This document shows, piece by piece, positions 12,425 to 64,000 of a DNA stretch of 64,000 nucleotides; position 1 is the first letter of the stretch; each line of letters begins with the position of its first letter. The notes beneath the pieces are model-generated. The model made no database searches, had not been told where the DNA came from, and saw only the letters and a list, made by a program, of their open reading frames with translations. The stretch comes from Octopus vulgaris (taxonomy: Eukaryota). Made by a program: the position numbers and the translations under genes. The stretch spans positions 85,808,001 through 85,872,000 of the forward strand of contig OX597816.1 in the NCBI GenBank assembly GCA_951406725.2. Direction: 5' to 3'.

Positions 12425-12601
12425 CAGTTCTATATTTAAACGATGAACAATAATGTACATTATTTATATTATTTACATTCACGGATATTTGTCCTCATCT
12501 TGTTTCTTAACACAACATATCAGCTGGTATACCCTCCAGCCTTCGTCAGGTGTCTTGCGGGAAATTTCGAACCTGGGTTCTCATTCCTAAGGTGTTTTCG
12601 A

Positions 12602-12642
<41 letters not shown>

Positions 12643-12865
12643 TCACTGCCTGGAATCGAACTCGGAATCTTGGGATTAGTAGCCCGTGATCTTAACCAAT
12701 ATGCCATATGCCCATGAACAATTATGGAGTGAATTTTTAGGATTTATAGGGTTTTATAAGACATAAAATTCCCTCCATAATTGCTAACGGGCATATGGCG
12801 TAGTGGTTAAGACCGCGGGCTACTAACCCAAGATTCCGAGTTCGTTTCCAGGTAGTGACCTGAAT
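12425..12865 (-). mobile_element. Foldback tRNA-headed element carrying a degenerate hammerhead (copy 1)
   Basis: Inverted tRNA-like arms at 12638-12737 and 12765-12863, then (TAA)n, then GACAC-CTGACGA-A-GGCTG..CAGCT-GATA-TGTT-GTGTT and an AT-rich tail; homologous to 41298-41655. Confidence 0.75.
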
Positions 12866-12871
12866 AATAAT

Positions 12872-12938
<67 letters not shown>

Positions 12939-17060: not shown

Positions 17061-17810
17061 TATATTTCTATCTTTCCTGGCTAGTTTAATGTTGTTATTA
17101 TTAATCTTAGCTATTAAAGTGGACATATTTGGGAGGGTTGAATAAGAAATCCTAACTGTTTTCCTAGAAATAATTCTATGATATCTATGAGAGATAGGGA
17201 AATTTTTTCCAGAATCACTTTGAATTTGTTCTGTATATCTGATTGTATCGCACAGTTGAAAGGAATATTCAGCCATAATATATCTTTTTTATTAAATTTA
17301 GGGTTCGTAGAATTATTACTATTCATCTCACCGGAGTTATTGTATTTATTACCATTATTTTTATTTTTATTTGTGTGCATCTTAGGTTTATCTACTTCAA
17401 TACTATCCGAGTTACCTATGTTCTGGTCAATGTTTCTATTTGAATTGTTGGGCCTGTACGCTAGACTATCGTTTACCGTTAGTTTAATTCTACTTTTATT
17501 TCGGGCTTGGTCTTTATTGTTGCTTACGTGATTATTGATAACTTCATTATTAGGAATACTTGAGTTCCCCTTATCAACGAATGTAATCTTTTGGTTGTAT
17601 CCAGCCTTAGTTAACGCCGCATTATAATGCTCAGAATGGGAGTTAAAAATATCCTTATTGGATGATAATTTTGAAATTCTTAATGAAATATTTCTTACTA
17701 AAGATTCTATAATATTTGGGGGATGATTTGATAATTTATTTACGTAATTCGTGATTTCACCTTCCTTTCTAAATGGGTAATGTAGTTTGGAGTTAAGGTC
17801 TAGCGTAGTT
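16137..17810 (-). pseudogene. Naiad-like PLE ORF C-terminal half: RT thumb, Asn-rich linkers, Zn-knuckle and GIY-YIG endonuclease
   Basis: ...YPFRK...SNHPPNI...RISKLSS...WLNIPFN...ISYSTLPNM...CKC..CP..GLC...VIY...YYIG...R..H...TTLS..IW.LK...C.LC..E...LLN...C.H. Open except for one frameshift in an A-run near 17205. Confidence 0.9.
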
Positions 17811-17828
17811 CTAGAGAACTCACATGTA

Positions 17829-17919
17829 TTTTAGCTGATGAGTACGGGACACGTTTATATGCTGTAATTTTTGCAACTTTTAATAAAACCTGTCCTTGTA
17901 TGAAACGATTGTACTAAAA
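17829..17919 (+). ncRNA. Type I hammerhead ribozyme (inverted pLTR copy)
   Basis: TTTTAG(17829)-CTGATGA(17835-41)-GTACGGGACA...TGTCCTTGTAT-GAAA(17902-05)-CGATT-GTA^CTAAAA. Confidence 0.85.
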
Positions 17920-26991: not shown

Positions 26992-29082
26992 CTATCCATA
27001 TGGTATATTTATGTTTGACATTTTAAATTTGGTTGCGTGCCTGCATAAGTTCATCAGCTCACTTCTTTGATTAAAATATAAAGTTTCTCTAACAGGCAAA
27101 GGTTGCATTTAAAATTATTCCTGTGTGCTCCATGCTTGTATAGTGCCGCTCTGTCCAGAATGCTCCATCTCACGTTGAAAGGTGGTGTTTCCTTTTCTTT
27201 TAGTCCCCAGACATATTTTGCTAGGCTGGTCCTCTTCCTTTTTTCTGGGTATCTAAATGAATTTTTATGCGAATAAAATCGTGTTTTAAACGAATTTTCT
27301 GAAGCCCCTGTATATATGAGCCTTCTATTTGTACCTTGGCTCTATAAACTACTTCTTTTACTAGACATTTCCCTTCTAACGGACAGGAGGATTCATTTTT
27401 GAAATTACATTTCTTAATGGGCTCGGCACCATGTTTAATCTCAATCAGATTCCTATTATGCTGGCTAATGTAAGAGGCGAAATCTCTGCAACAAGAATAG
27501 CTAACCTTCAGGGTTCTTCTATTAAATATTCTATAGAATTTATGGTCCTGTTTAAAATGCTTAGAGACTAATCTCAAAAATTCCTTACCTATATTAGTCT
27601 TTACGGCCAAACTGAAAGCCGGGTTGAACCACAAAACTTTCCTGGTCCTAGGTCTTCGCGCAGCATTATTATCAGCATTAAGCAGGTTGTATTGGATCTT
27701 CTCAGAGAATCCACTATTCCTTAATGCGCTATCGTAATAAGGTGCAGCATTATGGAATGCTGCCTCGTCCGAAGAAATTGAAGATATTCTTCTACCTACA
27801 TGGCTGACTAAGTTCCTAAGGATAACTGGCGGATGGTTCGAATCTTTGCTAATATACGATAGCTTTTCATCGGGCTTACGGAAAGGTTTAAACCTATCCG
27901 ACCTTACATTAAAATTTACGTCTAAAAATGTACACTATTCATGTTAGCATCTATTGTAACCCGTAAGCCCATCCTTTGAAAGAAAGCAATAAGGTCCTTC
28001 CTAAGTCTATCTGATTCATGGCCGTTTAGATTATGTGTGGCTATAAGGCCGTCATCCCTATATAAACCTGCATCTATAAACGGGAATTCTATTTTTAGAT
28101 TATGAAGAATAAAGGCTCCTATGAGCATACATAACTCATCCCCCTCGTATGCCCTCATCGGTACATCGAAAAGAGAATCCTCACTATTCTTAATCCAGGT
28201 GGAAACCTCGAAAAAAAGAAGTGATTTCCTCGCATGCTTAATAATATCAATTTCCGAGGTATCGATGCTGACATACTGCTTGGCGAAGTCCAATGCCCTC
28301 AGAAGTAACGTCCTAGATATTGACGGGTACAAGTCAATAATATCGAATTGTGTAAAACTGCAATTATTCTTATAGCTAATACCTTTAAACCACTCTATGA
28401 GTGACTTAATATTCTTCCAAATTCTCAAGTCTACTTCACTATCTAACTTAGTTAAAATACGGTCCAAAATATTTTTGCTAATAATACCTATCTCAGTTTT
28501 AGACGGATTTATCAATCTACATTTGGGGTTTCTATTAAAATTGGTTTTATGGTCTTTTAGTGTTATAAAAGTTTGTCGTGGGGAAAGATATTCAATCCTA
28601 TCGCTAAACTTAAGATCGTTAGCTATTCCTCTTGCTTCTAAATTCACCTCTTTGCGTTATCTTTTTTGTATGTATCTGTGACACTATTCGAAATCTGGCG
28701 CATATAAACGTCCTTATCAAGTGCATATAAGTTCCTTGTCTTATCAGAATTACCGAAGATCTTATTCGAGTTGTTAATCTCCTTAATTTTTTTCTCTCAT
28801 ATTTCTCTGTAATTGGTTGCTATATTTGCGGAAATTAATTTTCCTAATAAGTTCGAAAAGGTCTTTCTCGAAGGCTTCTAATTCCGGAATAGGTGGTGGA
28901 TTTCTGGGAGATTTAAGTCCGTATTTGTTTCCGTCGGTTTTCTGTTTAGTATCAAAGAAGAAGGCTTTCCATCTCAATCTTAGAATAAATTCTTCCGTTC
29001 TCTCTATAAGACCTTTGAGATATTGCTTCCGTGCAGGGTTAGGTATATTTTTCTGAGAAAAGTCCAGCGGGTAAAGTTCCAT
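26992..29082 (-). pseudogene. PLE reverse transcriptase + GIY-YIG ORF with frameshifts and stops
   Basis: N-term FSQKNIP...RLRWKAFFF; ITLKDHK..F...PKCRLINPSK; FDIIDLYPSI; LYRDDGL; WFNPAFS; CPLEGKCL...VVY; YTG...FKTRFYSH; CNLCLLEK; CRH. Confidence 0.92.
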
Positions 29083-29173
29083 CTTTTTAAGCTGTTTGTT
29101 CTTCCTACTTGTGCAGAGTCGCTCAAACTTTTATAAGGAGCGGGTTACACCGGAGTAAACACATAAATGTGAA

Positions 29174-29999: not shown

Positions 30000-30547
30000 A
30001 TATCCTAATGCATTTACATTAATAAACACTATTTCCTCCAATTTCAGTAACAGTTGAACTGTAACAGAAAAACCATTAGCTCTGCAGCAAACAATCGATG
30101 CTCAATTCTAATGTCAGTAATGAAAGCGTTTCAACTCAGCTTGGAAGAAAAAAAGACCCGCTTTAGTGAATCGAAAAGGACAATGTGCGACCACACGCTG
30201 CAAAATCTCTTCAGAGAAGATAGAAGAACTGGGTTCGGGAAAATTTCTCTTCCACCTTATTCTCCCGACTTTGCTCCTTTAGGCTACCATTTGTTTCGTA
30301 GTTTACAGAATCATTTGGGGGACATAACTTTCGCAAGCCAGGAAGTCGAAACTGACATTTCAGAGTTTTTCACTTTGAAACCAAAAGAGTTTTTCACTGA
30401 TGTGATTAAAAAGCTTGTAAATAGATACAGGGAAGTTATAGATAATCAGGGAAAGTACATTGATTATTATATTTCAATTAAATATAACATTTGACCACTT
30501 GTTTTCTTTATTCAAAATTCGGACAGAACATATGGGATGACCTGATA
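30000..30547 (+). mobile_element. mariner transposase C-terminal relic with 3' TIR
   Basis: LPPYSPDFAPLGYHLFRSLQNHL...LVNRYREVIDNQGKYI; TIR-like cggacagaacatatgggatgacctga-TA. Confidence 0.85.
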
Positions 30548-30590: not shown

Positions 30591-30813
30591 ATATTGTTAT
30601 ATTTCATGTCACGGAATGGTCATATTGCCAGTTTAGCCAATAAGAAGAAGAAGAAGAAGAAGAAGAAAAACACACGCACTATATATTTGGTGTTATTTTT
30701 TGCTTCAGTGATATTTATAATTTTTACATTAATCTTAATCTTATTTCTGGCCAGTTCTTTCGTCACACTGCTGTGTCATGTCTGTAAACATGAATCAGAT
30801 AATAATGGTCCTT

Positions 30814-30855
<42 letters not shown>

Positions 30856-31734
30856 CTCACTTACTTGTGTCTCTCCTTACTAACGTATAGCCATTTTGTA
30901 TTTTTACATTAATCTTTCTATTGTATGTCTTCATTTGTCGCATGCTTATATCTCTATGTGCGTCTATGTTTATTTAGTGTCTATGGGGGGATGCCTGTAA
31001 TATTTGTATCTTCTGGTTATATACATTCTTGTAATTTGTATTTTGTTTTTGTTGTTGTTGCTTTTGTTCTAATTTTGTTCATGTGTTTACATCCACCCAT
31101 TATTATCATTACATATGCTTGTATGTATAGTATAACAACAATATTAGTAATAATAATAATAAATCTAATCGAAAAATAAAAAAAAAAAAAAAAAAAAAAA
31201 AGAATATACATATACATATGTATATGTATATTCTTTTTTTTTTTTTTTTTTTTTCGATTAGATTTATTATTATTATTACTAATATTGTTGTTATACATAC
31301 ATACAAGCATATGTAATGATAATAATGGGTGGATGTAAACACATGAACAAAATTAGAACAAAAGCAACAACAACAAAAACAAAATACAAATTACAAGAAT
31401 GTATATAACCAGAAGATACAAATATTACAGGCATCCCCCCCCACACACACTAAATAAACATAGACGCACATAGAGATATAAGCATGCGCAAATGAAGACA
31501 TACAATAGAAATACAAAATGGCTGACGGTTAGTAAGGAGAGACACAAGTAAGTGAGAAGAAAACAAAGGACCACTGATGCGGTCACAGGAGTGTGACGAA
31601 AGAACTTTGGCCGAAATAAGATTAAGATTAATGTAAAAAATAAATATCACTGAAGCAAAATAACACCAAATATATAGTGCGTTTGTTTTTATTGGCTAAA
31701 CTGGCAATATGACCATTCCGAAATATAACAATAT
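30591..31734. repeat. ~1.1-kb spacerless palindrome of a pLTR-like sequence
   Basis: Perfect palindrome at 31201-31234 (axis 31217/31218); arms align outward ~500-600 bp; hammerhead-like motif at 31568-31612. Confidence 0.9.
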
Positions 31735-32455: not shown

Positions 32456-33307
32456 AAACTAAAGCATGCAAAGTGAAGCCGCTTAGCACAGATTGACCGT
32501 GAATTCGGCTGTGCATGCGCACTAACTTTTAACGTTCTAGCTCACTTCCGCTGTTCACAACACTACTTGCAAGGAAGGTGTGTAGCATATGATGATCGTC
32601 GCATTGAAAATGACTAAGTTGAGCAAAGAATCTGCTTCAAATTTTACCTGAAGTCTGCGTTGCGATACCTACTCAGGGACCAATGCAAAATTTTCAAAAG
32701 CTTTCATCGTTCTCGACACAATCAAGAAGATGTGCAACTGAAACCCTAGTGTCTGTTTAGTCACCTGAAAGTAGTTTTGGTACAAACTTGGCAGACACGC
32801 CTCTCATACCTAAATCTTCAGTAATAATGGATTGAACTGAATCGTACCTATTCTGCACATATTCTGATAACTCACAGATGGCAATTCGACGATTTTCCCT
32901 CACAGCTGCATGCACATTCGCGATGTTTTTCTTAGGTCTGCTGGCTGCGGGTCTGCCAGAACGTTCGTCACTACTAACATGGTCTCGGCCATCTTCGAAA
33001 CGTCTGAACCACTCGTACACTTGTTTGCGGCTCATATACTCCTCTCCAAACATTTTATGAATCTTTGCCTCGGCCTCTGAGCAGGTATAGCCATGACAAA
33101 TTTCTCCGTCATGGAGAATGCGGCGAACACATGCTACGCACCTTTCTTCCAAGCGCTACTGTAAACAGTGAAAATGAGCTGGAATGTCAAAACTAAGATG
33201 CATGCACAGCAGAGTTCAAGGTCAATATTTGCCAAGTGGCTTCATTCCGTGTGCTTTAGCTTTGTTACTATGGCAACAGTCCGGATACGTATTGAACAGA
33301 CCTCGTA
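32456..33307 (-). mobile_element. mariner relic made of two inverted 5' halves
   Basis: Minus ORF ...MSRKQVYEWFRRF...ERSGRP...SAKFVPKLL (HTH and WVP-like motif); TIR TA-CGAGGTCTGTTCAATACGTATCCGG at 33307; 32456-32700 is a plus-strand homologue of the same 5' region. Confidence 0.85.
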
Positions 33308-41297: not shown

Positions 41298-41378
41298 CTC
41301 GCGCTCTTAACCCCAAGATTCCGAGTTCGATTCCAAGCAGTGACCTGAACAATAGTAATAATAATAATGATGATGATC

Positions 41379-41433
<55 letters not shown>

Positions 41434-41655
41434 TAATAAAAATAATAATGATGATGATGATAACATCGAAAAATACCTTAGGATTGAGAACCCAGGTTCG
41501 AAATTTTCCCAAGACACCTAAAGAAGGCTGGAGGGTATATCAGATGAAACGTTGTGTTAACAACAAAAAAGATGAGGACAAATAACCGTCGAATATAAAT
41601 AACATAAATAATGTAAATAATGTACATAATTCCTCATCTCTTAAATATAGAACCA
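41298..41655 (+). mobile_element. tRNA-headed hammerhead element (copy 2)
   Basis: cgcgctcttaac (inverted head remnant)-cccaagattccgagttcgattcc...gtgacctgaa-(TAA)n-...GACAC-CTAAAGA-A-GGCTG..CAGAT-GAAA-CGTT^GTGTT-...aaatatagaac. Confidence 0.75.
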
Positions 41656-41962
41656 GGTTATGCCTTTCTTTCGCTGGACTCAGATCTCATTTGTGGACCT
41701 ATGTAGAACGAACTTCAACTAACTATTCTGTTTATACATCTGTGCACACCTTCCAATGTGTGCTTAACTGAGGCCTCAAAAGACATTTAAGACACACAAA
41801 GGTAAGAAATTAATTGTAGCTCCTTGTGATCCAAATCAGATATCCAATCTATGTTAGTCTTTATTCAATGCACTGTCTGGTTTTAAAAGCCACATCAGAT
41901 ACCATGATGAGTATACAGTGCACGTACAATATGTGGTCAGACTCTGCATAAGGAGTAGACAA

Positions 41963-42000
<38 letters not shown>

Positions 42001-42158
42001 CTAATGTAGGATAAAATTTTTCTCGGAAAAAAATTTTTATCAATGGCCAGCATATCAAAAAATACCTTTAAATGTTAAATTTATAAATAATTTACAAGAT
42101 AAGGGCAAAAGAAAAATTCTAATTTGGCATTAGAATGTTTCTTTTGCCCTTATCTTGT

Positions 42159-42202
<44 letters not shown>

Positions 42203-42538
42203 TACTGATAGATAGATAGATAGATAAATAGATTGATATATATACACATATGTATGCATATATATATATATATATATATGTTTGTGCGTGTGTGTCGAAA
42301 TATATGTTTTAGCTTTTATTTATTTATTTTTTTGTTGTTTCAGGGATTAGATTGCGACTATGATAGGGCTCGAATTTGAAGTACCTTAGTCGGAATAAAA
42401 GACCCCAGTGTTTATTTCTTTCAAAACCTGGTACTTATTTCCTTAGTTTTCTTTCCCTAGATGCTAAGTTACAAGGAAGGAATGCACAAGAACACTGGTT
42501 GCTAGGCGGTGGTGGGGGACAAACACATACACACACGC

Positions 42539-50500: not shown

Positions 50501-50594
50501 CTGATATTTAAATCACACCGAAGATTGTGTGTCCGGGCATCATCACCTCAGAACCGAGTAGAATAGAAGACATGAGGCCCATGAACAGCAAGGC

Positions 50595-53310
50595 ATCGTA
50601 TGCTTTGGGTTAGGTATCTCATTAAACTCTCGATTTCGATACTCAGGCAGTCATCCACACTTATCAGTCCCCTTCCTTCATTTGCTATCTTCATGTATAG
50701 GCGATCAGTGTCTGCACGTGGATGATGGGCTTCATGCATCGTTAGGAGCATTCTTGACTTCCTGTCCGTCTCCTTTAGCTCCTGCTCTGTCGAGTTCAGA
50801 ATTCCAGCGCCATACCAAACCACTGCGTCTACGTGCGAGTTTATTGCTGAAATTATGTTTCTGGCATTCAGCTTTGAAGCCAATATTTTTCTCACTCGCC
50901 GCAGGTACATTTTTTTTTGTCTTTTGCTTTATGTTGTCGTGTTTGATTCCATCTGTTTCACGTATCCCCAAGTATTTATAGAGGGATTTAGGCTGAATGG
51001 CCTTCATCATTTCATCACTTGGCAAACTTTCCTCGTCTCATCTCTATCGTTGCACATTTTGAGCGTCTAAACTCTATCTTAATATCATTGGAGAAAATCC
51101 GCACAGACTGGACTAGGCTGTCTAGTTCTGCCTCAGTTATTGGGAATAGCTTCAGGTCGTCTATGATGAGCAAGTGGTTTGGTTTTCTGTTACCTGTTCC
51201 CAGATCATACCCTAACTTCGTTTTCTGTATTATTTCACTGAAGGGGAATATTCCCAGCACGAATATGAGTGGGGACACATTATCCCCCTAGAAGATTCCT
51301 CTCTTGATTTTCACTTCTACTAGTACTTGCTTCTTTGCTGGCAATTCCGTTCTCCAGTATTTCATGCTATTCCATAAAAGGCTTCTCATATCCTCTACTG
51401 TTCCATACATCTCCATTATTCTTAATATCCAGAAGTGTGGTATCATATCGTATGCTTTGCTTTAGTCACCCCATGCAACGCTCAGGTTTGTATTTCTTCT
51501 CTTGCCATTCCTGATAATTAGATTATCAATTAAGAGCTCATCCTTCGTTCCCCGGTTCCTTTTTCGGCACCTTTTGTGCTCAACGGGTAGCAGTCCACTT
51601 TTTTCCACTTATCTGAACAGTTCACCGGCCAACGCACCTGACATTAATTTCCACGTTAGCAGAAAACATGTGATCCTTTGCACATCACAATATCATTCCC
51701 TTTGTCATCCAGCTGGGTAATGGCCCTTCCTGAAAGTACTCTACTAGCTGTTGTGCTATCCTTTCATGGAGCCCTCTCAACTTCTTCATCCAATAAGTTT
51801 GGACCCAATCCAGTCTTGTGCTCTTCCAATTTGAGAATTTTCTTAACTGTGTTTTTGTCATTTCTGTAGTTATCTTCATGTCTTCTTGGACTTCTCAATT
51901 TCTGAACCTATATTGGATATCATGCAGCCACTCCGCTTCATCATTATGCTCTACTGGTTGGTTCCAAATCCCTCTCCAGAGAGCCTTACTTTTCTCTACC
52001 TCTGGTGTCATTGTTACGTGTATCTGCCCATCTAATTCCTGAAACAGTTTTTTTCTGATTTGATTCAAACAATGTTTTGTCTGAACTGTCTTTTTCTATT
52101 TTCATATCATTCCAGTAATGCTTTGATTGCCACTATTCTTTATATCAATTCTTCCAATATCAAATCATAACCTTTATCTCTTATTCCATATGTTCTTTTC
52201 AGCATTATTGTTATGCTTTCCTTCTGCAGTTCCCTTCTTGTCAATCGTTCAACTTGTCGTGTCTTGTTAACTTTGTTTCTCACAAATTCGACTACACCAA
52301 TATGGTTCCCTATCTTCTCTTTCTCCTTTTCTTTTGTATCCATTTTATTTGCAGTAACCATAGTTGCAGCTCAAATAATCTTGTTAGTTTCAGTTATATT
52401 TGTCGTCTGGAATAGCCCAAGAACTGAATCTATCTTTTCGGTTTCAACCTTGAGCTTGCGTCGGTCAATGTACCTCAGGTTGAGGGGTACTTGAACCTGG
52501 TCTTCTCTAATATATCAGCACAGCGCCCTCACTATGTCTTGTATTCTTGTGATATAGCTTTTCCTATTACTTCTGCTTCATTTGCTGAGAATGCATTTAC
52601 ATTTACACTTTGCTCTATTTCTTCACAGTCGCCTTTCGTTTTTCTGTTGTCACTGGATATGTTATATGTTGGTGAAATATTATTTCTATCTTCTACTTCT
52701 CTTTTTATCTCTTCTATTTCCATGTTTGTTAACCACCATTTTGCTCTTATTGCTCTTGCCTAGTTGGCTAACCATTGCTCACTTGTTTCGAAGAGTCCTA
52801 TCTCATTCCATTTTGCTTTCATTCGTTGTCGGAAACCCCTTCTGCTGGGTTCACTCCTGATGCAGCATGCAATTACTGTTCGGTTTGCCTCCTTATCCCA
52901 CCTTCTTTGCTTCTTCTGTCTTTGATTACAAGCAGTCTCTGGATAACGACCGAACCTGCGCTGCTCAATAACAGGCAACCTGCCGGACAAAGGGATTTCT
53001 CCTTTGAGTCCATACCATTATTTCATACATTTGTATTAGACATTTTCACTCAAAATTCATTCGCGAGTCATTTGCTTTTATCCCAGGCATGGAACACTTT
53101 GACACTGACAGTATATCGGCGCTGAATTCTTCTGCCCTTTGAATTCTGGATTCTTCTGAATTCCTCTGCCCTTTGCCGGGTTTTGCTTATAATCCCGCAG
53201 GGTCTCCCGTTCTCACCAAGCAAGCTCAGTGGTGTTGACGGTTTAGTCGCAGACGGCTCGAGGTTTTAACAACGCCGCTTGTTAATCATTCTGGGTAATT
53301 ATCAATCTAG
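50595..53310 (-). mobile_element. R4/Dong-type LINE from the 5' end through RT, internally deleted
   Basis: N-term WDKEANRTVIACCIRSEP.RRGFRQRM..W; ...SPLIFVL...NHLLIIDDLKLF...YKYLG...YLRRVRKIL.SKLNARN...RLYMKIANEGRGLI; 5' end abuts (TAA)n. Confidence 0.9.
53163..53278 (-). ncRNA. Candidate HDV-like ribozyme at the LINE 5' end
   Basis: Helix order P1 (GCGGCGTT/AACACCAC), P2 (TCTGC/GCAGA), P3 (GAC/GTC), P4 (TTGCTT/AAGCAA), J4/2 GCAAA. L3 and P1.1 are non-canonical. Confidence 0.4.
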
Positions 53311-61076: not shown

Positions 61077-63295
61077 GTATATATCTACATAATTTGGAAA
61101 GCACTGTGTATTAAGCAACAATATTTTATCTTACATTACATACACAGCAATATTTTATATTAAAGTAAATGTCACAATAGTTCTCGATGATCTCATGTTG
61201 TTCTAAAGAAAATATTCGCACAGTTAACATATGTGGATAGATAATGGAATGTTTATATACAGCTGACAATATATATGTTTGTGGCAGAAACCAGGCTCTA
61301 ACGTATATTTTCAAATGTTTCATGCACCATTGTCAGAGGGGAACATCATGCTTCAAAATACTTTAAAAAGTATTCTAAACATTAAAATGTATTCTACCAC
61401 AGTTTCATAGGCTGCTCGTAGATAGATGGTGCCATAGCATTTCATTTTCTTAATAATTATTCTGGAAACTTTGCAAGGGAGGTTTGGCTTTGTGTATGTG
61501 TGTGTACGTGTGTGGTGTGTGCGTATGTGTTTGTTTGTGCGTGCATGAGTACATATGTGTGGGAGCGCGTGCGTGTGTTTGTGTGTGTGTTATGAAATAT
61601 AGATTGGAACGGGCAGTCGAGAGTGAAGAAATTCTACAATTATAAGTTACTTCTTCCACTGACATCCTTATCGTACACAGACAGTGATATGAACTGGCAT
61701 CGTCTAGTAATGTAAGATATATCTCAATAATAATATAGTTATCCTTTAATTCCATGAATGTTTTCCTAAGATAGATGCTCCAAATTTCCTCTCATTCGTT
61801 AATTCATTTGACCATTTTCTCAAATTTTTCTGTGTTATCTCAGAAAGCACCATTCACATTCAAGGTCAAAATATCATTTTCCGCCATCTTGTCCATAGTC
61901 TCGCAAACATTGACTTCTATAAAATCAACGACTATCAGCCCTAGTTTGATTTTGTTCCCCTCAACACTCCTATAAAAATGAGCCACCTATTATTGTCTTT
62001 TCTTCTGTTTCCACCACCTCTGTCACCCTCAACAAGATTTTGAGACTCCTCATTCAAGCTGTACAGAATTGCTTTTCTTACCTTTTACCAGCATTTCACG
62101 CTAAACTGCCCTGAATTGCTATTCTGTTCTCTTCCCCGCACTCAACCACCCATATTCGTCCACTATCTCTTACTGCGCATATTTAGTTCGTCCAGTGCGA
62201 TCTTACGAACGACACCCTCATTCATTATAACTCCTTACATTATTGAAGCCCATGTGACTTAATGGTGCATTCATTCCATCCATCTATTTTTCTATTTTAT
62301 TTTGGATCCTCTTTTAGTTTTCGGCCCTGTTGTTATACGTAGACTTTTAGTATCAACATCGATTCCCTTGGATGACCCAATTACCATAACGTCCACATTT
62401 CAGCCACTCATCATTTCCAGTAAGGGATCGGGAAGAGAGGTTGCAGGGGATGTAAACAAAAAACGGGTTTTTCGGCACATTCGGTGGTCACGGTACTTGA
62501 TTCCACGCAAAAAATCCGAAGTTTTCATTGTCTTCCTTAGTGAATCGCATGCGCGTGTACTTCGCAAGATTTACCGAAGTTTGTACTTGGGACGGGGGAG
62601 GAGAAAACGTAGTTGGAATGAAAAGAGGAAGAAAATAGAAAACAATACTTTTGGTGGGCTTAAGTGTAGGTGGTATACAATGAAATATTTTCAGGTGATC
62701 GGAGGCTTTTATAGCAGTGATACAATTAGGAAATAAGAAACAGTATGTTTGTGATCAAGACGTTGTAATATCGTGGTGAGGGAGTTTGTGGTGGTACAAC
62801 TAGATATAAGGGCCTGGGAAAAGGAGGTGCAGGTTCTGCTCAAACAACCTCTAAAATTTTTCAGACGTGCTAACTAGAAATGTGTACCCAATTCATACTT
62901 GGCCTAGTTTAGAAAATAGTGTCTAAAAATTGATCTGTATTGCTTGAAAGTTAGGTTTGTACTCAAGACAAGAACACAGGACAAAAATAAATAAATAAAA
63001 AATTCAGAATGTTTACTGATGAAGCTGGTCATAAAATCCCTAAGGGAATTCCCTAGGAAGATTTACAATTGAACTAACAGCATGACAAGCAGTATGGCCA
63101 CTCCTCAAAACTAGCACAGTTGATGACCAATTAAACTGCAGAATGAAAAGACCTTCAATGTCCAGCTATCTACATTATTCATTTTCTCTGAATATTACAA
63201 CTGACCTATCATCAACATCGTCATCATCATCATCATTGCCATAATATTCTACTGTTGCAACCATAACCACTACTACTATCACTCTTTTTTTCTCA

Positions 63296-64000
63296 CCACT
63301 GTCCACTTCCCACACAAGAGGTAATAACACTTTGGACCTGCTCTTTACCAGCACTCCTGCAACTGTTGTCTGTGTTACGACGAAAGAACCTCTAGGCGAC
63401 TCCGATCATGTTATGATCGTTGCCAGTCTATCTCTTATAGGCAGAAGCAAGAAGCACCACCACATTCAAGCCACTCACTTTGACTGGAACAAAGCAGACT
63501 GGAACTGTTACCGAAAGGAGTTAAGATGCCCAAACTCGTTTGAATTTTATGATTTAGGGGACGTCAGTACTGTCTTTCCAAATATTCTCAATGCAATCTG
63601 GGCTGCATGTGAAGCTTCAGTACCGCGCAAGCGCTCTAGAAATAAAAACAGTGCAATTTGAAAGACTACAGCAATTCGACTTACCAAGAAATTGCGGGGC
63701 TGAACAGAAATACTGACAGCATAAACCAGATGAGAACAGAAGATGCAACAGATCAACCGACCGTCTCAAGCAAGCCAAAAATGGCAGTGCTTGAGTTTGA
63801 ACGACGTATAGCAACTAGCCCTGACAGCAAAGTGTTCTGGAAATATGTACGTTCGAACAGACCTCATGCCTCAGTTAGCCCTCTTTGCAATCCCCACACA
63901 GGTCGGATCACCGATGACCCCAAGGAATGTGCTGAGCTTATTGCTGAATGCTATGCTGGTATTTTTACTGCTGAAAATCCCAGTTTACCTTCTTCATCAA
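63296..64000 (+). mobile_element. CR1-type LINE: APE endonuclease C-terminus and linker, runs off the window
   Basis: TRGNNTLDLLFT...LGDSDHVMI...FDWNKADW...KVFWKYVR...TDDPKECAELIAECYAGIFT. Confidence 0.85.

Follow-up and report, generated by a model that had tools for sequence, protein, structure and literature searches.

We consider it likely that the locus at positions 12425 to 12878 of the window, meaning the whole stretch of 64,000 nucleotides of Octopus vulgaris contig OX597816.1 analysed here, is a single insertion, head-to-head, of a pLTR that belongs to a coding Penelope/Poseidon retrotransposon, and that the tRNA-derived segment of this pLTR is a Pol III promoter, probably of the whole element. 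A more far-reaching proposal, which we hold to be possible rather than probable, is that of an autonomous coding retrotransposon transcribed by Pol III from end to end off a captured tRNA promoter, with a 2.5-kb ORF purged of terminators; its first terminal repeat would itself give rise to thousands of SINE-like copies, and no separate SINE would be needed. The class of element and its insertion pattern are both known; the single unusual feature, indirectly supported, is that a Pol III promoter of tRNA origin may drive a coding retroelement.

Layout of the window locus

An earlier note on this DNA had described here two tRNA-like heads pointing outward from a 27-bp spacer, one of them continuing into a second B-box-like motif and a hammerhead, and had proposed a PLE-mobilised SINE with divergent Pol III promoters. 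The features of the locus, together with those of a second copy in the window, are the following:

12425..12748 (-): long arm, Penelope/Poseidon pLTR with full 3' tail, 85-90% to the family majority
12425..12460 (-): "tail" (bounds approximate) between two 3'-end clusters, likely two RT start sites, a meaning taken from the available text of PMC11167929
12426..12584 (-): first ~53 codons of the element ORF, frameshifted in the window copy
12509..12554 (-): minimal type I hammerhead in the ORF, damaged (GATA for GAAA, TGTT for CGTT)
12564..12573 (-): GGTTCGAAAT, the supposed second B box, coding (Q-V-R-N)
12604..12638 (-): (AAT)n tract, (AAT)11, separating the head from the start codon
12638..12713 (-): tRNA-like head 1, with A box 12696-12706 (decayed) and B box 12653-12661
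12714..12748 (-): ORF stop TAA (12744-12746) and 3' spacer, with the inferred start site ~6 nt above the head
12749..12752 (no strand): true arm-arm join, 4 nt, from arm alignment
12753..12878 (+): inverted second arm, with ORF stop 12757-12759, head 2 at 12789-12863 and a short (AAT)n
12796-12806 (+), within 12789-12863: A box of head 2; its B box, 12840-12848, is damaged
41300..41653 (+): second copy, with a 12-nt inverted head remnant (41300-41311), 5'-truncated head, (AAT)n, ORF start and tail
41513-41558 (+): damaged hammerhead of the second copy, CTAAAGA for CTGANGA

Both heads, at 12638-12713 on the minus and 12789-12863 on the plus strand, do point outward as the note had said, and its order for the minus arm (head, (AAT)11, GGTTCGAAAT, hammerhead and an AT-rich tail ending at 12425) is also that of the copy at 41300-41653, which has the CTAAAGA damage and an inverted remnant at 41300-41311. 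The 27-bp spacer, the product of an ungapped view, turned out to be element sequence, namely the ORF end on both arms, the real join being 4 nt long, and the second "B box" dissolved into four codons of the ORF. The two window arms align at 90-92% up to the ORF stop codon, that is, they extend ~40 nt above the inferred start, and this copy therefore came from the downstream pLTR; it belongs to the ~15% of arms that reach the ORF end and is not itself a head-initiated copy. In the second arm the hammerhead part is missing and (AT)n follows, the element reaching about 12878; a target duplication was looked for and not found here, the right end of the window copy being lost. Rfam and ARAGORN gave no matches on the window, and for this reason both window heads are regarded as degenerate.

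Elsewhere in the window, positions 27224-29130 (-) hold a near-complete ORF, without a Pfam match, of a second Penelope-like element that we take from its motifs to be Neptune-type, and a third PLE-like ORF fragment, with an Asn-rich insert, lies at 17117-17830 (-). A 1.1-kb imperfect palindrome (79%) at 30591-31734 is unrelated to this Penelope family and is possibly another head-to-head PLE end pair, and a 330-bp imperfect palindrome at 41959-42285 adjoins (TA)n. Judging from motifs, the ORF fragments at 30051-30491 (+), 32760-33155 (-), 63245-63999 (+) and 50551-50928 (-) are presumably of mariner-like transposases and LINEs.

A coding Penelope element

Exact matches to one 24-mer of the unit number 5547 in the 2.8-Gb genome (reversed control, 0), far more than chance allows, and 33 of 103 unselected arms contain it without a mismatch, which gives a rough estimate of ~17,000 terminal arms. 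Among the first 28 other loci, L029 has remnants of RT and GIY-YIG immediately upstream of the head, and a search with this stretch yielded 20 loci; the ORF end leads straight into the head in the majority of them. On the other side, among 28 loci in correct orientation (the mis-oriented L252 and L258 being excluded), 13 have the hammerhead-bearing core ahead of the ORF and running on into its start, and a 14th has the same with an insert. The majority reading of 44 stretches is a 2639-nt unit with one 835-aa frame that begins ATG AGA ACC CAG GTT CGA AAT, in the order head, (AAT)n, 835-codon RT/GIY-YIG frame, 35-nt spacer and next head. As in a pLTR, one sequence flanks the ORF on both sides, standing ahead of its start and again beyond its end, and the "second B box" and the hammerhead lie within the first 55 codons. 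Since the hammerhead part runs in frame into the ORF start and the head comes directly after the ORF end, the unit is the autonomous element's pLTR. Head and hammerhead are thus no chance neighbours, both being in the pLTR and contiguous with the ORF end and the ORF start, and the autonomous PLE with the same end, which the note had advised searching for, exists as the 835-aa RT/GIY-YIG frame collinear with the unit. The TAG of the A box, also tried as the ORF stop, proved wrong, the stop being ~35 nt upstream.

The 835-aa majority frame contains the motifs DKG, YVDD and VYSIPCSCG..YKGETCR, and the element ORF matches RVT_1 at E 2.4e-10; a PDB search with the protein gave RT matches only, and weak ones. 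We take the C-terminus to be GIY-YIG from its motifs; Pfam GIY-YIG had no match in the protein, and a relative is named "predicted GIY-YIG superfamily endonuclease". A protein that is 70% identical carries the label Octopus sinensis. Domain order and the absence of a Neptune-type cysteine linker, which we assume to be a Poseidon criterion, suggest a tentative placement in Poseidon. Copies are ~85-93% identical to the majority, and no intact young copy was seen among those examined. The PLE clades, Poseidon included, are described in PMC8557442 (available text), from whose supplement, covering Naiad, Chlamys and Hydra and with line breaks that can hide matches, two short motifs of our element are absent.

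On one contig, G000:C31, at least nine near-identical insertions share an identical truncation point, suggesting amplification within a larger repeat. A second LINE, which we take by its motifs to be R4/Dong-like, has repeatedly inserted in the (AAT)n tract of the element, parting head from core; it is found there at L011, L030, L058, L077, L103, L147 and L189, and accounts for many headless or coreless arms. A head-only SINE was also considered, given that a sense core is missing within 800 nt at 14 of 70 loci, and it found no support: 10 of the 14 have an inverted partner or an upstream ORF, and at several of the 14 the (AAT)n tract has taken up insertions of other elements.

The hammerhead in the ORF

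The majority over 128 arms reads GACAC CUGA(U 68%/A 29%)GA A GGCUG..CAGCC GAAA CGUU GUGUU, at codons ~11-25 of the majority ORF, so the claim of an intact family hammerhead with AACGTT, damaged at different positions in the two window copies, holds. The full motif is kept in 36 of 99 arms longer than 110 nt, and conservation at the core positions is on about the level of the remaining unit, as is expected of dead copies. The U/A polymorphism at the free core position 7, family-wide, is a conservative Asp/Glu change in the overlapping ORF. Read from the sequence, a monomer has no room for stem III (ACGU), which can pair only between two molecules, and cutting would be expected only from a dimer or with a protein assisting. 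The available texts of PMC4209133 and of the review PMC6765202 describe a dimer requirement for such hammerheads, and that of PMC11167929 reports for PAc that cleavage needed protein and was dispensable for insertion in vitro.

Inverted arm pairs

The analysis of pairs used 70 loci with an exact A-box match, which came, following the order along the chromosomes, from the first 100 of 1150 matches. An inverted partner arm is present at 50 of the 70, and a partner that reaches the A-box region at only 15 (arms stopping at the head start). Joins differ between copies, and the partner may be truncated at any point of the 300-nt unit; hence a pair of divergent heads is no built-in feature of the family, contrary to what had been suggested as a possibility, and what stands of that claim is the likely Pol III promoter. 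Among the 31 pairs with both ends, 26 have one long (..AGAACTG) and one short 3' end, five have two short ends and none has two long ones. At least 8 bases are common to both ends in 24 of these 31 pairs, mostly 12-13 (mismatched controls, 3%), which indicates that each pair is one insertion with a target duplication. Head-reaching long arms carry either 3' end, so that plain copying of one arm from its partner does not account for the pairs, and two primings are inferred.

Head-to-head arms, variable joins, unequal 3' ends and ~12-bp duplications are together the standard Penelope insertion, and the divergent promoters are its by-product. In the text available of PMC8557442, an inverted 5'-truncated copy and a one-sided 30-40-bp tail are standard for PLEs, and in that of PMC4209133, PLE hammerhead pairs lie on opposite strands, 100-700 bp apart. 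Tandem short pieces are only occasional in our element, the arms being mostly inverted and coding.

The tRNA-like head and the 5' boundary

As in a SINE head, the tRNA-derived segment has both boxes, the A box TGGCGTAGTGG at 8-18 and the B box GTTCGATTC at 53-61 from G1, which, as read from the letters, is tRNA numbering. Compared with 30 genomic tRNAs of six amino-acid types, the best scores against shuffles were those of Arg(TCT) (z 8.7) and Arg(TCG) (z 7.9), suggesting a tentative Arg isotype; the head has no acceptor stem and no cloverleaf fold.

Most arms stop where this head begins. Of 70 arms anchored at the A box, 59 stop at most 16 nt above it (one of them, L137, being an internal deletion), against 1 of 21 in a control anchored at the ORF end, 35 nt further up, where the median reach is 342 nt (p 2e-11). 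The core-anchored sample of 77 rows has 32 without a head match and 45 with one, and the latter end inside the 77-nt head in 9 cases, at its start in 31 (one double count) and beyond it in 5. Among ORF-start copies that pass the (AAT)n, two of three begin at the head (L257 and L266) and one in the upstream ORF end (L250). Contigs from four other organisms (three studies) lose the consensus at the same point, the loose-end consensus ending ATATGCCCACGGG. Many joins read ATATGCCC-AC/GT-GGGCATAT, that is, a fold-back on the 10-nt palindrome GCCC-AC-GGGC, and these joins place the template end ~6 nt above G1, 13 nt above the A box; a distance of ~13 nt above the A box is the typical start spacing of SINEs. 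With no partner detected at the palindrome, 45 short arms still stop at the head start. We suggest keeping in mind that this sharp 5' boundary, which coincides with the palindrome, marks the end of an RNA or a turning point, not a polymerase.

Avoidance of Pol III terminators

On its sense strand the 2639-nt majority unit has no T4 at all, with 2.7-4.5 expected (P 0.007-0.04), and per copy the observed/expected ratio of T4 is 0.14 over 73 element stretches, compared with 0.8 over 20 stretches of a control LINE that is TAA-targeting and of like composition. At NNY codons where T would create T4, C is used in 8 of 8 (p 0.007) vs. 178:182 elsewhere, a count that is not independent of the T4 absence. 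According to the available text of PMC8466645, TCTTT, TATTT and T4 are the minimal Pol III terminators, TCTTT being a partial one in mammalian cells. A test of pentamers with four T in five, chosen after the T4 result, gave 3 in the ORF vs. 13.2 expected by synonymous shuffling (0 of 2000), and 4 in the whole unit vs. 13.7 expected by dinucleotide shuffling (P 0.002). One TCTTT is left, at ORF nt 231, just past the tail. The Neptune-type ORF of the window has 15 T4 in 1.9 kb, and a 714-nt PLE fragment has 1 (2.9 expected), neither with a pentamer deficit; the T statistics of the element come from one majority sequence, set against two families and this one fragment, with no tRNA-less Poseidon family among the controls. 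Since T avoidance over 2.5 kb would not be selected by short SINE-like transcripts, Pol III likely reads the whole unit.

Transcription model and alternatives

In the mechanism that we favour, Pol III would start ~13 nt above the A box, at GCCCACGGGC, and without T4 could read through the 2.6-kb unit. By analogy with PAc, the element protein would then prime two cDNAs, each from its own position inside the ORF start. Where these cDNAs copy the first pLTR of the RNA, they would both run off the RNA 5' end and yield ~300-nt SINE-like arms, and such arms may be joined through microhomology or by a fold-back at the GCCC-AC-GGGC palindrome; where they copy the downstream pLTR, they would continue into the ORF end, as in the window copy. 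Three raw RNA runs (related or same species, apparently unstranded) contain thousands of reads of the element with equal mate directions, 80-85% of which enter unlike flanks, with no start pile-up; these reads look like passive transcription of scattered copies and do not test the promoter. What whole-element Pol III transcription leaves unexplained is the translation of an uncapped Pol III RNA, and there is also an upstream ATG-GCG-TAG within the head.

This translation problem disappears if there are two promoters, with Pol III making only short pLTR RNAs, and hence the SINE-like by-product, and the protein and the long copies coming from Pol II read-through, an explanation to which we give perhaps one chance among several. 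It would accommodate the arms that reach the ORF end, the window copy included, and the TCTTT just past the tail; on the other hand, the avoidance of T runs spans the whole ORF, where short transcripts would not select it, and the ORF-bearing L257 and L266 begin at the head. In part, it overlaps with the explanation that we prefer.

Somewhat less probable, and in our view unlikely, is a Penelope transcribed by Pol II with a passively captured tRNA or SINE head, in which the 5' pile-up would be the Pol II start or the turn-round at the palindrome. That PLE promoters sit in the pLTR (PMC6765202 and PMC8557442, available texts), that many joins do fold back on the palindrome, that the ORF requires a translatable RNA and that the RNA reads resemble passive read-through all agree with it. 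However, the 45 short arms without a detected palindrome partner still end at the head start, and the tRNA-exact spacing of the boxes below the boundary and the depletion of T runs over 2.6 kb are left unaccounted for.

The model of the earlier note, an independent non-coding SINE or retrozyme with divergent Pol III promoters that a PLE mobilises in trans, is very improbable and already largely refuted: Penelope machinery was rightly recognised, but the separate non-coding SINE is the autonomous element's own pLTR. Most copies are indeed ~300 nt long and begin at the head, terminal arms outnumbering ORF-end arms by ~4:1 on a rough estimate, but the unit matches the autonomous element collinearly over its full length, the comparison turned up no sequence specific to a SINE, and the joins vary between copies. 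Least credible of all is that the tRNA-like fold is a processing signal in a longer transcript, with an RNase P-like cut at G1. In its favour, G1 is the largest single class of apparent 5' ends (12 of 70), but the head has neither acceptor stem nor cloverleaf, several of the ends at G1 arose by fold-back, and in many arms up to 6 nt above G1 are retained.

Relation to known systems and significance

Among the closest likenesses of the octopus element is PAc (Poseidon_Ac of Anolis carolinensis), which in the available text of PMC11167929 has a single RT ORF with C-terminal GIY-YIG, a pLTR hammerhead overlapping the ORF start, an inverted truncated partner arm, and two 3'-end clusters inside the ORF start that bound the tail; there, RT starts at these two sites inside the ORF, which itself starts at the hammerhead. 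In PAc the hammerhead C3 and G8 precede the start codon, whereas in the octopus element the whole core is coding, and that text describes no tRNA-like head or Pol III promoter for PAc. Metazoan PLE hammerheads (PMC4209133) are likewise type I and minimal, with an extra unpaired base before stem II and a monomer without stem III, and the main text of that paper, as available, has neither tRNA nor Pol III.

Schistosome SM-alpha, as the review PMC6765202 presents it in its available text, also has a Pol III-type promoter followed by a type I hammerhead; it is non-coding and often tandem, in contrast to the octopus unit, which is the pLTR of a coding element and lies head-to-head. The non-LTR retrozymes (bioRxiv 10.64898/2026.07.22.740005; PMC7229834; both as available) are short hammerhead sequences related to PLE pLTRs, but are tandem, head-to-tail and non-coding, unlike the inverted and ORF-collinear octopus arms, and the main texts at hand do not mention Pol III. 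The octopus unit is accordingly not made of tandem head-to-tail non-coding monomers as retrozymes and SM-alpha are; nor is it, like a SINE, non-coding, non-autonomous and distinct from its partner except at the 3' end, its core being the ORF start.

By the usual view, the products of Pol III are short non-coding RNAs, and autonomous retroelements rely on Pol II or Pol I. Within the open-access literature, which was the scope of the search, we found no PLE described as having a tRNA-type promoter. The 5' ends of the arms and the target duplications also allow Penelope integration to be read from the genome, as two primings within one ~12-bp staggered cut. If the proposed transcription is true, the element would be a natural 835-codon ORF on a Pol III transcript, raising a testable question on cap-independent translation, and it would show a route by which SINE-like elements can arise inside their own motor.
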